A stretch of 64,000 nt of DNA from an uncultured Ruminococcus sp. GTDB lineage: Bacteria; Bacillota; Clostridia; Oscillospirales; Ruminococcaceae. This document shows, in pieces, positions 8,839 through 28,635 of this stretch; positions within the stretch are counted from its first letter, which is position 1; every line of letters starts with the position of its first letter. The translations under genes were made by a program, and so were the position numbers. Location of the stretch: the NCBI GenBank assembly GCA_947174365.1, contig CAMWIR010000001.1, positions 9,100-73,099 of the forward strand, written 5' to 3'. Under the pieces are notes generated by a model. It made no database searches and was not told the origin of the DNA. It was given only the letters and a program-made list of their open reading frames with translations.

Positions 8839-8922
8839 TGGTGGAAGAGGATGGATTTGAACCATCGAAGCCGAAGCAACAGATTTACAGTCTGCCCCCT
8901 TTGACCACTCGGGAACTCTTCC
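8839..8922 (-). tRNA. tRNA-Tyr(GUA), CCA encoded
   Basis: Reverse complement GGAAGAGTTCCCGAGTGG...GACTGTAAATC...GGTTCAAATCCATCCTCTTCCACCA; long variable arm. Confidence 0.97.
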
Positions 8923-8928
8923 GCATGA

Positions 8929-9004
8929 TGGAGCTGGTGGACGGACTTGAACCCCCGACCTGCTGATTACAAATCAGCTGCTCTACCAACTGAGCTACAC
9001 CAGC
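8929..9004 (-). tRNA. tRNA-Thr(UGU), CCA encoded
   Basis: Reverse complement GCTGGTGTAGCTCAGTTGGTAGAGCAGCTGATTTGTAATCAGC...GGTTCAAGTCC...CCAGCTCCA. Upstream promoter TTGACA-17-TATACT. Confidence 0.97.
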
Positions 9005-22117: not shown

Positions 22118-23248
22118 ATGAGATTAAAAAGATCGGCAAGATCGGTATTTTCACTGGCAATGGCTCTGGCTGTTATTTCAAGCGTTTCCGCTTCGGCTTT
22201 TGCTCACCCGGGCAGGACGGACAGCAGCGGCGGACACTACAACAGGTCTACAGGCGAATATCATTACCATAACGGCGGGAGTTCGTCGGGTTCAAGCTCG
22301 AGGTCGACAAGTACAAACACGGGGAGCTCGTCAAGTTCAAGGTCGGGCAGCAGCTCTTCAAGCTCAGCAAACTCAGCAAGCTCACGCAAGGCCAAATGGG
22401 ACGGCGACAAATACTGGAACGGCAGCAAATATGTCACGGGCTTTTGTACCATAGACGGTAAAAAATACTGCTTTGACAGCAGCGGAAAGCTTTACAAAAA
22501 CGAATGGGTAACAAACAGTTCGGGCGAACGCTTTTACATAGGCAGCGACGGCACCGTGTGCACGGGCTGGCACCATGTGGACGGGCACAAATACCACCTT
22601 TGCGACGACGGCAGTATGAGCACAGGCTGGTGCAAGGTGGACGGCAAAAGTTACTTTTTGGGCAATGACGGCATTGCACGCACGGGTTTCAGGAGCATTG
22701 ACGGCAAGGTGTACTGTTTCGACAAGAACGGCGCTATGTGCACAGGCTGGCAGAAGATCGACGGCAGCACCTATTATTTCAAAAGCAGCGGAGAACGTGT
22801 TTCGGGAAAGGTGAAAATAGACGGCAAGGTCTACACCTTTGATGAAAACGGCAGGCTGCAAAATGCAGCTTCCACGGCTGCGGCGGCAGGACAGACCTCC
22901 GCTTTGAAGTGGGGCATGACCATGGACGAGGTAATTGAGGCAAGGCAGCTGGACAAGTATGTGATAGATGAAGATGTGATAATTACAACGGATAAGGTCA
23001 TCAGTGACTGTTATTTCTTTTATGAGGATTCCCTCTGCGGCTACGGCAAATGGACTCTCTACTCAAAGAGTTCCCTTAAAAGCTTTAAGAAAACTCTGGA
23101 GGACGACGGCTGGGAAAATGCAGGCAGCAGCTATGAGGACGGGGTAAGCTATATATATTACACCAAGGACGGTCATATTACAGTGATATTCTATGATGAC
23201 GCTTCGCTGTTCCGGGTAAGATATGCCGATGATTTTATGGATATGTGA
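22118..23248 (+). CDS. Secreted YHYH-domain protein with Ser-rich linker and cell-wall (choline/glucan-type) binding repeats
   Basis: Signal peptide, HPGRTDSSGGHYNRSTGEYHYHN, poly-Ser, about six ~20-aa repeats of type TGWxKIDGKxYYFxxxG. Confidence 0.88.
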   Translation: MRLKRSARSVFSLAMALAVISSVSASAFAHPGRTDSSGGHYNRSTGEYHYHNGGSSSGSSSRSTSTNTGSSSSSRSGSSSSSSANSASSRKAKWDGDKYWNGSKYVTGFCTIDGKKYCFDSSGKLYKNEWVTNSSGERFYIGSDGTVCTGWHHVDGHKYHLCDDGSMSTGWCKVDGKSYFLGNDGIARTGFRSIDGKVYCFDKNGAMCTGWQKIDGSTYYFKSSGERVSGKVKIDGKVYTFDENGRLQNAASTAAAAGQTSALKWGMTMDEVIEARQLDKYVIDEDVIITTDKVISDCYFFYEDSLCGYGKWTLYSKSSLKSFKKTLEDDGWENAGSSYEDGVSYIYYTKDGHITVIFYDDASLFRVRYADDFMDM

Positions 23249-23254
23249 GAACGC

Positions 23255-23310
23255 AGAAGCAGGAAATCAAGAAGCATGAGGCAGGAAAAAGTTTCTTGCC
23301 TCCTTTTTGC
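23255..23310. repeat. Family B hairpin element (copy 4, degenerate)
   Basis: AGAAGCAGGAAATCAAGAAGCATGAGGCAGGAAA...TTTCTTGCCTCCTTTTTGC. Confidence 0.55.
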
Positions 23311-23408
23311 ATTTGACATAGTATACGATTTGACTATGCGGGCTTGTCCGCTTTTTCAAAGCGGGGAGAATTTGCATAAATTATATAAAATTTCGGGAGG
23401 TAAAAAAT

Positions 23409-24221
23409 ATGTTGTGCAAAAGCTGTGGAAATTTTGTAGAAAAATACAGCGTTTTCTGCCGTTTCTGCGGGGCTAAGCAGGCGGCACAAACAGTGCTCCG
23501 TGATTTTGAGATCCAAAACGGTGTGCTGATAAAATATAAGGGAAGAAAGAAAAATGTTGTTATTCCGGATGGTGTAAGGGCGATATGGTTTGAGGCATTT
23601 AAGGACTGCAAATTTATTAAAAGCGTAACTATTCCCCTTAGTGTAAGCTTTATACAGAGTGAGGCATTCGGTGGCTGCACAGCTCTTGAAGAAATAACCA
23701 TTCCGAGTTTATTAGAGCGTATAGGCTCAGAGGCGTTTAATATGTGCACGTCTCTTAAAAGCATAAGCATTCCCTTTGGCATAGAGCATATATACTGGGG
23801 TACATTCCGAAATTGCACATCTCTTAAAAGTGTAACTTTTCCTGATAGTGTAATGACGATAAGTCACCATGCATTTGAAAATTGTACAGCTCTTGAAAGC
23901 ATAAGCATTCCCAACCGTGTAACAGATATAGGCTGGGCTGTATTTAAGAACTGCACATCTCTTAAAAGCGTCACTATTCCCGATAGTGTAATGACGATAT
24001 GGCGATGTGCATTTGAAAACTGCACATCTCTTGAAAGCATAAGTATTTCGGACAGTGTAAGAGAAATACAGATAGGTGCATTTTCCGGCTGCACGAGCCT
24101 TACCGAGGTGAGCGTTCGGGATATTGAATTTAAGCTGGAAAGCACTGCATTTAAAGACTGCCCCCTTGACCCGGACTCAAAAAAGGCGCTTGAAAAATAC
24201 AGTATATACGATAAGGAATGA
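23409..24221 (+). CDS. Zinc-ribbon plus BspA-type leucine-rich repeat protein
   Basis: CKSCG...FCRFCG, then 23-aa repeats AFxNCTSLKSxTIPDSVxxI. No signal peptide. Confidence 0.88.
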   Translation: MLCKSCGNFVEKYSVFCRFCGAKQAAQTVLRDFEIQNGVLIKYKGRKKNVVIPDGVRAIWFEAFKDCKFIKSVTIPLSVSFIQSEAFGGCTALEEITIPSLLERIGSEAFNMCTSLKSISIPFGIEHIYWGTFRNCTSLKSVTFPDSVMTISHHAFENCTALESISIPNRVTDIGWAVFKNCTSLKSVTIPDSVMTIWRCAFENCTSLESISISDSVREIQIGAFSGCTSLTEVSVRDIEFKLESTAFKDCPLDPDSKKALEKYSIYDKE

Positions 24222-25442: not shown

Positions 25443-27179
25443 TTATTCTTTTGTAAGCAGTGCGAAAAAATCGTCCTCGGGCATGGGCTTTGCATAATAA
25501 TATCCCTGTACCTGGTCGCAGCCGATATTCCTCAGAAGCTCCACCTGCTCCTTTGTTTCAACGCCCTCCGCAAGTACGGTTATGTCCAGATTTGCCGCCA
25601 TCTGAAGCACCTGCTCCAGTATACTGCGACCCTTGCTGGAGGTCATCATATTTTCAATGAAACGTTTGTCAAGCTTTATAACGTCAAAGGGGGATTCCAG
25701 CAGAACGTTCAGGGAGGAATATCCGCTTCCGAAATCGTCCATAAGCAGGGTAAATCCGCTTTCTTTCAGCAGGGCAGTCTGCCTGCTGATCTGAAGATCG
25801 TCTGCGGTCTCGGTTATTTCAAGCTCCAGCAGATGCCCGGGAATGCCGCATGAGCGTATCATTTCGGAAAGTATCCGGGTGCACCCGTCCTCTCGTAAAT
25901 GAACTCTCGAAACATTTACCGAAACAGGACACGGTCCGACCCCTGCGTCAATGCACCTGCGGATGAACATACACGCCCTGCGCCATATGTAATGATCGAC
26001 CTTTACGATCGCCCCGTTTTCCTCGATTATGGGTATGAACTGATTGGGATAGATTATTCCCCGTTCGGGGTGCACCCACCGCACAAGCGCCTCCGCTCCT
26101 ATGATCTCATTTTTGGAAATGCTGTATTTGGGCTGAAGATACATACAAAGCTGATTTTCGTCAATTGCTTTTTGAAGATTTTCCTCAATGAATTTCATGT
26201 TATACAGGGAATCCTTGAATTGATCCTTGTAGAAAACGATATTGGAGGAAAAGCCCAGCTTTGCGGTGCGCCTTGCCATGGCAGCCCTGTCCTCAATACG
26301 CCGCAGCTCCATGGTCTTGTCCTCTGCGATATACACGCCGTAGGAGATCTGGAGGGTAACATTCTTGTATTTGCATATACGGGCGTCAAGCTCGGTTATG
26401 AACCGCCTGGGGTAATCCTCGTCGGGAGCTTCCGTTACCACAATAAATACATCGCTGCGCAAATTCAGGTAATATTGCTTCTCGTTGCACTGCTCCTTTA
26501 ATCCCCGCACGATATGATCCAGCACTTCATTTCCGAACTTTTCGCCGTAAAGATCGTTGATGATCTTGAAGCGGCGTATATCAAACTGAATAAAAGCAAC
26601 CTTATCGGCAGTTTCCAGAAGCTCGGTAACATGGCGGCGGAATCTGTTGGAGCGCCCCATGCGCTTGACCATAGTCTGAAGCTCGTCGTTTTCCGGCAGA
26701 TACTCCGGGTCTATGGAAATATCCGCTTTGTAGTTTATGTATTCCGCAGTCATTTCCTCAAGGATCTCTATACTGGCTTCAAGGGCAGCGGGACATCTTT
26801 TGAGGATAAGCCCGTTCTGCCGTATTTCCGCCATTTGATCGGGAATGGATATGTCCTTCCCGAGAATGTCACGGCAGTTCACCTTGCCGTTCATTCTTTC
26901 GGAGAAACGCTTTATAAATTCCTCGGTTTTCTTGTTTCCGTAGACCTCCTGCTCGGTATCGCTGGCATTATAGAAGCCGAAGGTCATACCGAGAACGAGA
27001 AGTCCTGCCGTAATGCACCCGCAGGTATTTCCGCAGCGCATACCGCCTCCGAAACAGGTGCTTATTTTAAAAGCCGTTTTCAGATCAAGCCCGAGATCAT
27101 GGGCAAAAGCGCCGAAAAGAGCCTGTGTGCAGTGATATTTTTCATTCAGAAGCTTGATAGCATTTTCCTTATGAGTCAT
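25443..27179 (-). CDS. C-GCAxxG-C-C domain / degenerate GGDEF / EAL fusion protein
   Basis: N-terminal HCTQAL...FGGGMRCGNTCGCITAG...NCRDIL...RCP; GGDEF-like region with RSDVF; EAL motifs EALVRW, ELEITE, DDFGSGYSSL, AEGVET, QGYYY. Start set at MTHKENA. Confidence 0.88.
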   Translation of the reverse strand: MTHKENAIKLLNEKYHCTQALFGAFAHDLGLDLKTAFKISTCFGGGMRCGNTCGCITAGLLVLGMTFGFYNASDTEQEVYGNKKTEEFIKRFSERMNGKVNCRDILGKDISIPDQMAEIRQNGLILKRCPAALEASIEILEEMTAEYINYKADISIDPEYLPENDELQTMVKRMGRSNRFRRHVTELLETADKVAFIQFDIRRFKIINDLYGEKFGNEVLDHIVRGLKEQCNEKQYYLNLRSDVFIVVTEAPDEDYPRRFITELDARICKYKNVTLQISYGVYIAEDKTMELRRIEDRAAMARRTAKLGFSSNIVFYKDQFKDSLYNMKFIEENLQKAIDENQLCMYLQPKYSISKNEIIGAEALVRWVHPERGIIYPNQFIPIIEENGAIVKVDHYIWRRACMFIRRCIDAGVGPCPVSVNVSRVHLREDGCTRILSEMIRSCGIPGHLLELEITETADDLQISRQTALLKESGFTLLMDDFGSGYSSLNVLLESPFDVIKLDKRFIENMMTSSKGRSILEQVLQMAANLDITVLAEGVETKEQVELLRNIGCDQVQGYYYAKPMPEDDFFALLTKE

Positions 27180-27290
27180 AATAAACCTCCGCCGCAGTTG
27201 ATGGTTTTTACTAAAATCAATTGCTTTGTACAGTTTAATTTTATCACAAATGCTGCCCATTGTCAAGGGATAATAAAAAAGATTATGTAT

Positions 27291-27318
27291 AGAAGTTAGA
27301 GGTAAGAGGTTAGAAAGT
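27291..27318. repeat. Heptamer tandem element (family A, copy 4, reverse orientation)
   Basis: AGAAGTT AGAGGTA AGAGGTT AGAAAGT. Confidence 0.75.
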
Positions 27319-27325
27319 TTTTGGC

Positions 27326-27407
27326 GTCCTCTCATTTTCATTGAGAAATAGAATAAAGAAACAAGAGGCAAGATGTTGGTTTTCTTCATCTAGCCTTTTG
27401 CTTCTAA
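27326..27407. repeat. Family B element (copy 5); left copy of an ~80-bp imperfect direct repeat
   Basis: CTCATTTT...GAGAAA...CAAGAGGCAAGATG...TTCATCTAGCCTTTTGCTTCTAA, matching 28338..28420. Confidence 0.75.
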
Positions 27408-27413
27408 ATGTGA

Positions 27414-27515
27414 CTATTTCTTTTTCTTTTTATTTGCTTCGACCGTAAAAACGACCGCCAAACCAATTCCTAAGATTATCCACGGAAATGCCGCGTTAAA
27501 AAAATCCTGTATCAT
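27414..27515 (-). CDS. 33-aa single-TM small protein
   Basis: Manual translation MIQDFFNAAFPWIILGIGLAVVFTVEANKKKKK; RBS GAGGTG; directly downstream of the 144-aa membrane gene. Confidence 0.65.
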   Translation of the reverse strand: MIQDFFNAAFPWIILGIGLAVVFTVEANKKKKK

Positions 27516-27525
27516 GATTTTCACC

Positions 27526-27960
27526 TCACATTTTTCTTTTATAATATACATTAACAATGACCGTTGCCAATGCGCTGAAAAGCAGTACGGCAACTAAGGA
27601 AAAACAAATTTTTTCATTGAAAAAACCTGCCGCAACAGCAGCCATAGCAGTCCCCATCATTGATATAGCCGAACTCTTTTGCGATGTCTCCTTATTGATG
27701 GCAATGTTGCGCTCATCGGTTTCGTTTATGTACATTTCTTTTAATTTTTTCTCATTGCGCAGGGTGGCAAATGTTCTCGTAAGACTATATACTGCAAATG
27801 ATTCCATTCCGACAAAAACACCCATTGAAACTGCCTGCGCAATATCACTTGCACCATTTGTGAGAAATACGAGCATGAAATACAGTGCAAGACTGCACAG
27901 ACAAACCAAAGTATCAAGTTTAAAACGCCTTTCGACCTTTTTTCTGAAATTCTCCATCAT
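27526..27960 (-). CDS. Four-TM hypothetical membrane protein
   Basis: 144 aa, hydrophobic helices flanking LKEMYINETDERNIAI. Start overlaps the XRE stop (ATGA). Confidence 0.8.
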   Translation of the reverse strand: MMENFRKKVERRFKLDTLVCLCSLALYFMLVFLTNGASDIAQAVSMGVFVGMESFAVYSLTRTFATLRNEKKLKEMYINETDERNIAINKETSQKSSAISMMGTAMAAVAAGFFNEKICFSLVAVLLFSALATVIVNVYYKRKM

Positions 27961-28421: not shown

Positions 28422-28503
28422 TGGAGGAGGATGGATTCGAACCATCGAAGCTGAAAGCAACAGATTTACAGTCTGCCCCCTTTGGCCACTCGGGAACTCC
28501 TCC
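28422..28503 (-). tRNA. tRNA-Tyr(GUA), second copy, CCA not encoded
   Basis: Reverse complement GGAGGAGTTCCCGAGTGGCC...GACTGTAAATC...GGTTCGAATCCATCCTCCTCCA followed by CTT. Confidence 0.96.
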
Positions 28504-28531
28504 GTATTTTTTACGCTTGTGGGATTTTACT

Positions 28532-28559
28532 ATTCTAACCTCTTACCTCTAACATCTAA
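28532..28559. repeat. Heptamer tandem element (family A, copy 5) in the tRNA spacer
   Basis: ATTCTAA CCTCTTA CCTCTAA CATCTAA. Confidence 0.75.
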
Positions 28560-28561
28560 AA

Positions 28562-28635
28562 TCGGGGCGACAGGACTTGAACCTGCGGCATCTTGCTCCC
28601 AAAGCAAGCACTCTACCAAACTGAGTTACGCCCCG
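28562..28635 (-). tRNA. tRNA-Pro(UGG), CCA not encoded
   Basis: Reverse complement CGGGGCGTAACTCAGTTTGGTAGAGTGCTTGCTTTGGGAGCAAG...GGTTCAAGTCCTGTCGCCCCGA. Confidence 0.95.

Follow-up and report, generated by a model that had tools for sequence, protein, structure and literature searches.

What does a cysteine-rich protein domain sense when it is found joined, in a single polypeptide, to a putative phosphodiesterase of the second messenger cyclic di-GMP (c-di-GMP)? The question is raised by a gene on the minus strand, at positions 25443-27179, of a 64,000-nucleotide (nt) stretch of DNA (hereafter, the window) from the genome of an uncultured Ruminococcus sp. (GenBank assembly GCA_947174365.1, contig CAMWIR010000001.1, positions 9,100 to 73,099). 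The gene encodes a protein of 578 amino acids (aa), in which a domain of the C_GCAxxG_C_C family (PF09719 / TIGR01909) precedes a degenerate GGDEF domain and an EAL domain. A comparative analysis of the gene, its homologs and their genomic surroundings shows that it belongs to a genuine and widespread family for which we found no published description, i.e. a new input domain on the known one-component GGDEF-EAL design. We propose, with a probability of roughly 0.5, that the protein is a cytoplasmic one-component c-di-GMP phosphodiesterase that is gated by a cysteine-ligated iron-sulfur (Fe-S) or metal centre. The elements of the gene, in the order in which they are transcribed and with the evidence for each (AF2, AlphaFold2 model; pLDDT, its predicted local distance difference test), are:

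27238..27266, minus strand: sigma-70-type promoter, TTGACA-17 nt-TG-extended TAAAAT (11/12 consensus matches)
27186..27190, minus strand: ribosome-binding site GGAGG, 6 nt ahead of the ATG (invariant in the alignment of homologous loci)
25443..27179, minus strand: whole gene for the C_GCAxxG_C_C / degenerate GGDEF / EAL protein, 578 aa (open reading frame, Pfam); stop codon 25443-25445
26751..27137, minus strand: C_GCAxxG_C_C domain, aa 15-143, within a structural domain of aa 1-145 (Pfam, TIGR01909, AF2)
26604..26744, minus strand: variable acidic linker and helix into the GGDEF fold, aa 146-192 (pLDDT <50 at aa 152-171, helix 165-190)
26259..26645, minus strand: degenerate GGDEF domain, aa 179-307 (Pfam, alignment)
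25485..26183, minus strand: EAL domain, aa 333-565 (Pfam), with the EAL motif at nt 26085-26093 and loop 6 (DDFGSGYSS) at nt 25713-25739

The source genome is a draft of 223 contigs (3.0 Mb), and an error of assembly or gene calling that joined two genes would produce the same picture. We count this explanation as already refuted and leave it next to no probability, because the same uninterrupted open reading frame recurs in hundreds of independent assemblies, isolates on megabase scaffolds included (e.g. Eubacterium sp. 14-2, on a scaffold of 2.2 Mb), and because nucleotide homology runs unbroken across the domain junction in six distant loci. The fusion is not an assembly artefact. A preliminary description of the locus, made from the letters of the window, had allowed for such an artefact and had suggested that the prevalence of the architecture be checked; the fusion it described is real, and the three-domain design proved to be widespread. 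All three Pfam domains are present in the 120 best clusters at 90% identity (ranging from 100% to 68% identity to the window protein), with the exception of one entry of 482 aa that lacks the N-terminal domain, and 1069 clusters match when only aa 1-150 are scored (proteins of 318-1011 aa). The N-terminal domain of the fused clade occurs in more than 150 protein clusters and, when one representative genome of each GTDB species was searched with two peptide patterns for this domain, in 261 species genomes. At 71 of the best 80 loci the encoded protein reaches 560 aa or more and has an EAL motif, the shorter ones being mostly cut by contig ends. Judged by their record titles, the carriers are mostly metagenome-assembled genomes of Lachnospiraceae, Oscillospiraceae or Ruminococcus, many of them from catalogues of the mouse gut or other guts, and the cultured carriers comprise Acetatifactor muris and the isolates C77 and B58 next to Eubacterium sp. 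14-2. In public annotation these fusions appear only as 'EAL domain-containing protein'.

The extent of the gene can be fixed at both ends. The longest open frame at the site runs from 25443 to 27389 on the minus strand (648 aa); its 70 upstream codons are read-through and the true start is the ATG at 27179, because both the promoter and the ribosome-binding site lie inside the longer frame. The promoter is kept as CTTGACA-N17-TGTGATAAAAT in 6 of 7 divergent homologous loci, in which the sequence 5' of it is unrelated. Similarity at the DNA level between the window and the six distant loci (L017, L018, L022, L025, L030 and L031) amounts to 78-84% and is confined to 27267..25450, that is, it extends from the -35 hexamer through the stop codon. 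The coordinates and the length of 578 aa that had been assigned beforehand are thus exact.

What the output half of the protein would do can be read from its two domains with different degrees of certainty. The EAL domain matches PF00563 over profile positions 2-236 of 236 (E 2e-65, 221 bits against a cut-off of 31.3) and aligns end to end with the structures of MorA and DosP. In 45 diverse homologs the full catalytic set (E363, R367, N422, E452, E454, E457, D481, D482, K502, D504, E538, E541 and Q558) is invariant (45/45), as is loop 6; from these residues the domain looks catalytically competent, in line with the catalytic motifs that the preliminary description had recognised. That description had also noted an altered GGDEF active site, and here too the comparison agrees with it: within a domain that matches PF00990 at aa 179-307 (E 4e-13, 49.9 bits against a cut-off of 23.8, with the AF2 secondary structure in agreement), RSDVF at aa 241-245 (nt 26445-26459) stands in place of GG(D/E)EF, and in the clade alignment (n=45) the R is found in 38/45, the S in 38/45, the D in 45/45 and the V in 43/45 sequences. 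The RxxD inhibitory site (I-site), expected five residues ahead of the motif, is absent, the residues at that position being NEKQ. Because RSDVF replaces the active-site motif, the domain looks unable to make c-di-GMP. A comparison with the 18 other GGDEF domains of the source genome shows that it keeps the invariant D200, K205, N208, D209, G212, G216 and K307, with D or N at position 217; five of these (D200, K205, N208, D209 and K307) are nucleotide-contact residues, and plausibly the domain still binds nucleotide. No full-length NCBIfam equivalog comes near its own cut-off for the window protein; the best hit, the DosP model, reaches 225 bits against a cut-off of 857 and covers the output half only (aa 177-571).

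The same genome encodes a paralogue of 566 aa (G000:C100, at L115:1015-2715) that shares 45% identity over the unit formed by the xSDVF-type GGDEF domain (LSADVF) and the EAL domain. Its N-terminal 165 aa are unrelated to the C_GCAxxG_C_C domain, have no Pfam match and may represent another undescribed input domain; the presence of a different N-terminal module on a shared GGDEF-EAL unit implies that the output acts as a chassis that accepts various inputs. With 19 GGDEF matches, 10-11 EAL matches and one PilZ match in 3.0 Mb, the source genome is richly supplied with c-di-GMP genes for its size. A search of it for c-di-GMP-I riboswitches gave no match, with the controls silent as well.

The assignment of the input half rests on two models: PF09719 matches aa 15-143 (E 4e-24, 85.3 bits against a cut-off of 27) and TIGR01909 is passed with a score of 55.7 against 47.4. 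An exhaustive search of 1.8 billion representatives gave 3808 matches at E <=0.001, most of the top 150 having 140-155 aa, and 125 stand-alone family members from it were aligned as a reference. The family cysteines correspond to C17, C53, C102 and C129 of the window protein, columns that hold Cys in 123-125 of the 125 stand-alone members and that are likewise invariant in a second alignment (A4). The family's Cys pattern, which the preliminary description had claimed for this protein, is therefore partly as described: the C_GCAxxG_C_C domain is present, the first Cys is C17 and not C15, and within CGNTCGC (aa 49-55), which had been taken as a Cys motif, C53 is the family-invariant residue and C55 a clade-specific one, while C49 is variable (Q in most relatives). 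The fused clade further differs from the stand-alone proteins by an invariant C42, where most of the latter have G, P or A, by an invariant C55 in place of A, resulting in a C-G-C motif (aa 53-55, nt 27015-27023), by H16 instead of N16 and by A58 instead of G. The central motif C-G-A-x-x-G consequently reads C-G-C-I-T-A, the Cys and Gly being retained and A->C and the final G->A being found throughout the fused clade; as far as the alignments go, C-G-C-x-x-A is a variant of the family motif and not a loss of the domain. Even the most divergent full-length member (P0169, 48% identity in the N-terminal domain) shares the six Cys, H16 and RSDVF, and the closest stand-alone relatives already have C42 and/or C55.

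Within the fused clade the N-terminal domain is the most conserved segment of the protein. Mean pairwise identity amounts to 80% there, to 76% in the EAL domain, to 67% in the GGDEF domain and to 52% in the linker, an ordering opposite to that expected for an incidental appendage; 43% of the columns of the N-terminal domain are invariant, six Cys and two His among them. The AF2 model of aa 1-150 consists of eight helices (pLDDT 88, predicted template modelling score (pTM) 0.85) and places three of the four family Cys (C17, C53 and C102) at helix N-termini, the GGG loop at 45-47 being the sole spot of low confidence. When the N-terminal domain alone served as query, the homologues retrieved were all fragments of the fused clade at contig ends, with no distant stand-alone protein among them, and for this reason the structure alignments are shallow. 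A PDB sequence search with this domain gave no match, either as a single sequence or as a 60-sequence profile, and Foldseek of the pLDDT-88 model against the PDB returned designed helical proteins at best (E 0.79, TM score 0.35), which is not meaningful. The window protein has neither a signal peptide nor a pair of transmembrane segments (the maximum hydropathy, 1.55, is that of the Gly-rich core helix, aa 52-70), and we read it as probably soluble and cytoplasmic.

PF09719 is present in 182 of 300 evenly sampled Clostridia genomes, almost always in open frames of 131-200 aa, which agrees with the earlier statement that these proteins are usually small and stand-alone (130-200 aa); the window protein departs from that form by its fused output domains of about 430 aa, and it is the only copy of PF09719 in its genome. 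According to published work the family also occurs in Bacteroides, sulfate reducers and archaea; its members are described as putative redox proteins, some of which are induced under conditions related to redox or iron, operons for redox and metal functions include stand-alone members (PMC5640608, PMC10434189), and some members are selenoproteins (PMC13188914, PMC9312934). The model for the selenocysteine form (NF045501) had no match in 399 Clostridia genomes at E 1e-20, its controls being silent too. In the literature searched the family has no assigned function, and no solved structure was found in the PDB.

From the even sample of Clostridia genomes we took 80 stand-alone loci, in 72 of which the gene could be delimited. 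In 12 of these 72 a gene for an iron-transfer P-loop ATPase of the Mrp/NBP35/ApbC type (PF10609, E ~1e-88) lies directly upstream on the same strand and usually overlaps the start codon of the stand-alone gene by 4 bases:

L118:3081-3959 with L118:3956-4429: ATPase gene and stand-alone C_GCAxxG_C_C gene
L120, L121, L129, L135, L140, L142, L145, L152, L156, L165 and L168: the 11 further loci with the ATPase link

No other neighbour recurs in more than 4 stand-alone loci, and we found no mention of the pairing in the literature searched. The first 37 loci included nine adjacent cases, spread over at least 8 GTDB families, although kinship among the sampled genomes still inflates this count. The source genome encodes an Mrp/NBP35-type ATPase as well. 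A role of the PF09719 family as client or partner in the delivery of Fe-S clusters is thus a real but partial lead.

A few open frames resembled further fusions and were set aside. One of 600 aa with a PF09719 match (G298) is upstream read-through opposite a radical-SAM-like frame, and around a stand-alone gene the overlapping frames L096:2426-4018 (minus strand) and L096:2198-4345 (plus strand) mimic a fusion of 530-600 aa, by read-through. A fusion of PF09719 with a GNAT domain does exist (P0258); it is not a signalling protein.

Taken together, these data can be accommodated in the following scheme. The EAL domain, with its complete invariant catalytic set, would hydrolyse c-di-GMP, and the GGDEF domain would probably relay the signal, structurally or allosterically, and might bind GTP in the manner of Caulobacter PdeA. 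The eight-helix C_GCAxxG_C_C domain would be the input, with C17, C53, C102 and C129 holding an Fe-S cluster or other metal centre and C42, C55 and H16 assisting. Oxidation, loss or ligand attack of that centre would alter the sensor domain, candidate agents in the cytoplasm of an anaerobe being O2, peroxide, NO, sulfide and the iron supply, and the change would be transmitted through the final helix of the sensor and that of the linker to the GGDEF-EAL unit and so alter phosphodiesterase activity. We infer that redox state or a metal gates the enzyme, that the domain binds a cofactor, and what the signal is and in which direction it acts. An Fe-S or metal centre appears the most likely cofactor because of the operon link with the ATPase and the four invariant Cys at helix ends, and the case for gating is strengthened by the extreme conservation of the Cys-rich domain together with the link of its stand-alone relatives to an Fe-S-transfer ATPase.

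Several observations weigh against this scheme. The four family Cys are widely spaced along the sequence and conform to no classical Fe-S motif, and the full-length AF2 model (pTM 0.47) does not fix the arrangement of the domains. The ATPase link is limited to 17% of the stand-alone loci and is concentrated in the most canonical subfamily (10/37 vs 2/35); the fused clade has its closest relatives outside the linked members, and the ATPase gene is adjacent neither to the fused genes nor to the stand-alone genes in four loci of the same genus. The selenocysteine forms, finally, fit redox-active thiol chemistry at least as well as they fit cluster binding. The bolder proposition, in which C_GCAxxG_C_C would be a sensory fold of Fe-S or metal-sulfur type that has so far gone unrecognised and the fusions would be the first Fe-S-gated c-di-GMP phosphodiesterases, is put forward tentatively, the odds being against it.

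The main rival is a metal-free thiol switch, in which a reversible disulfide or persulfide, for instance within C53-G-C55 or between C42 and a family Cys, senses the cytoplasmic redox state or reactive sulfur or oxygen species and gates the EAL domain. The change of C-G-A to C-G-C and the added C42, both invariable in the fused clade, would suit such a switch, the nearest stand-alone relatives share the extra Cys, selenoprotein forms are typical of redox-active Cys, and an EAL enzyme under disulfide control is already known in PdeC, through its periplasmic CSS domain (PMC5897775, PMC8846402). Six invariant Cys and a His in a small helical domain nevertheless exceed what a simple switch needs, the operon link with Mrp/NBP35 favours a cluster or metal, and a stable disulfide would be unusual in the cytoplasm of a strict anaerobe, so that we consider the thiol switch rather unlikely. 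Somewhat less probable still is that the domain keeps a redox or carrier activity of the stand-alone proteins and that the fusion couples this activity, or else a partner protein, to local c-di-GMP turnover, as a trigger enzyme or scaffold. The redox and metal operons of the stand-alone members (PMC5640608, PMC10434189) speak for this, and so does the absence of any other PF09719 copy from the genome, since the basal function of the family may then fall to the fused copy, as well as the persistence in many assemblies of a 222-aa derivative made up of the N-terminal domain and the linker. A place at the N-terminus, before a linker helix and GGDEF-EAL, is however standard for sensor domains, in the genome's own paralogue (G000:C100) the same output is preceded by an unrelated module, and the fused gene has no conserved partner gene.

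A degenerate GGDEF domain followed by an EAL domain is also the architecture of the c-di-GMP receptors LapD and FimX. The EAL domain of the fusions could, by this likeness, be a receptor instead of an enzyme and the protein an effector, and the NCBIfam LapD model does match, weakly and far below its threshold. Receptors of the LapD/FimX type have lost the catalytic and metal-binding EAL residues that here are invariant, with loop 6, in 45/45 homologs, which makes this a very improbable explanation. The Fe-S- or metal-gated phosphodiesterase remains the reading we prefer.

Compared with known systems, this phosphodiesterase would have its closest functional analogue in DosP (PdeO) of Escherichia coli, a c-di-GMP phosphodiesterase that senses oxygen directly. 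DosP is likewise a cytoplasmic one-component protein with an N-terminal cofactor sensor, a degenerate GGDEF domain and an active EAL domain, the cofactor and the activity being predicted in the case of the window protein, and the output half matches DosP structures at E 1e-49. DosP senses by means of haem in a PAS domain, whereas the window protein has no PAS match or haem motif and a sensor that is all-helical and Cys-rich. In PdeA (CC3396) of Caulobacter an altered GGDEF domain binds GTP as an activator; the altered domain studied here retains the nucleotide-contact residues and could, by analogy, bind GTP as well. The best PDB match by sequence is MorA of Pseudomonas aeruginosa (E 4e-57), which has the same tandem GGDEF-EAL unit and differs in its sensors and in a GGDEF domain that is catalytically intact where the window protein has RSDVF. 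In the CSS-domain enzymes (E. coli PdeC and its paralogues) the EAL phosphodiesterase is governed by Cys chemistry in a domain at its N-terminus (PMC5897775, PMC8846402), as is proposed for the window protein. The CSS domain, however, is periplasmic, lies between two transmembrane helices, has two Cys and comes without GGDEF, whereas the window protein appears soluble, has six invariant Cys in another fold and gives no CSS match in Pfam. With the stand-alone C_GCAxxG_C_C proteins it shares the domain itself, the four invariant Cys, the GGG loop and the core helix; these proteins have 130-200 aa and no output domain, and the C-G-C-x-x-A motif, C42 and H16 set the fused clade apart. The proposed logic, in which the state of a Cys-ligated cluster reports O2 or sulfide and switches an output, resembles that of the Fe-S cluster sensors FNR and NreB (for NreB, PMC13478379). 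The folds (CRP-like in FNR, PAS in NreB) and outputs (DNA binding and a kinase) of these two are different, and the cluster in the window protein is putative.

Conserved genome context adds little on the side of the fusions, for no partner gene is conserved beside the fused gene across the fused loci. Within three genes of it we found a GGDEF-like gene of about 309 aa without the canonical motif in 13/79 loci, directly downstream in 10 (L041:7818-8747 and 12 others within three genes), PilB and PilC in 5/79 (e.g. L036:2900-5862), directly upstream in the examples checked, and a flagellin gene in 4/79 (e.g. L040:7898-8977). Such neighbours are the usual targets of c-di-GMP and fit the predicted activity; they prove nothing. 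The 222-aa derivative (P0334, L161:3001-3669), which consists of the sensor domain and the linker only and is indexed in 62 blocks of the collection, has pilC and the genes for a pilin and a prepilin peptidase just downstream of it.

The fused form is present in only 2/25 genomes of the genus, and in four pairs of genomes the identity of the N-terminal domain exceeds that of ribosomal protein L1 (93% vs 73%, 86% vs 76%, 75% vs 64% and 71% vs 62%). The gene has likely spread horizontally, as a single-gene cassette that brings its promoter along; the alternative would be purifying selection of great strength. The GC content of the gene, at 0.48-0.49, equals that of its surroundings, so that base composition gives no sign of transfer.

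Some further features of the window were noted in passing. The minus strand upstream of the gene holds, at 27415-27960, a small unit distinct from it that has a promoter-like site of its own (28246-28218) and comprises an open reading frame of 144 aa (weak DUF6442 match, E 5e-4) and one of about 33 aa that is hydrophobic and Lys-tailed; the closest relative, L016, has this stretch replaced. Two pairs of tRNA genes are located at 28422-28635 and 8842-9004 (both on the minus strand), and in L016 additional partial copies of the tRNA region at 28.4 kb lie beside the phosphodiesterase gene. A low-GC region (about 0.40) at 22118-24221 on the plus strand, between the gene for ribosomal protein L1 and an SDR gene, encodes two adjoining putative surface proteins, one with choline-binding repeats (376 aa) and one with BspA-type leucine-rich repeats (270 aa).

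The pairing of this sensor with this output had been suspected to be undescribed, and within the literature searched that holds: a search by domain names and accessions found no paper tying the C_GCAxxG_C_C domain to c-di-GMP. The sensory inputs catalogued for c-di-GMP in a 2022 census (PMC8846402) comprise haem, flavin, zinc (CZB), hemerythrin and periplasmic disulfides; neither 'iron-sulfur' nor the C_GCAxxG_C_C name occurs in it. The swapping of sensor domains is routine in the GGDEF-EAL class, and specialists will not be astonished by one more. The value of the fusion lies in the fact that it gives a very common, structurally unsolved orphan Cys-rich domain a quantitative read-out: whatever alters c-di-GMP hydrolysis in vitro is a candidate for what the PF09719 domain senses, and the operon link with Mrp/NBP35 offers an independent, testable lead for the stand-alone family. 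If our reading is true, a cytoplasmic Cys, metal or Fe-S input, possibly the first of the Fe-S type, would be added to the list of c-di-GMP inputs, in strictly anaerobic gut Clostridia in which such inputs have barely been studied. Should the gating indeed be by an Fe-S centre, the output of the fusion would reveal the function of PF09719, a domain that is present in about 60% of the sampled Clostridia genomes.

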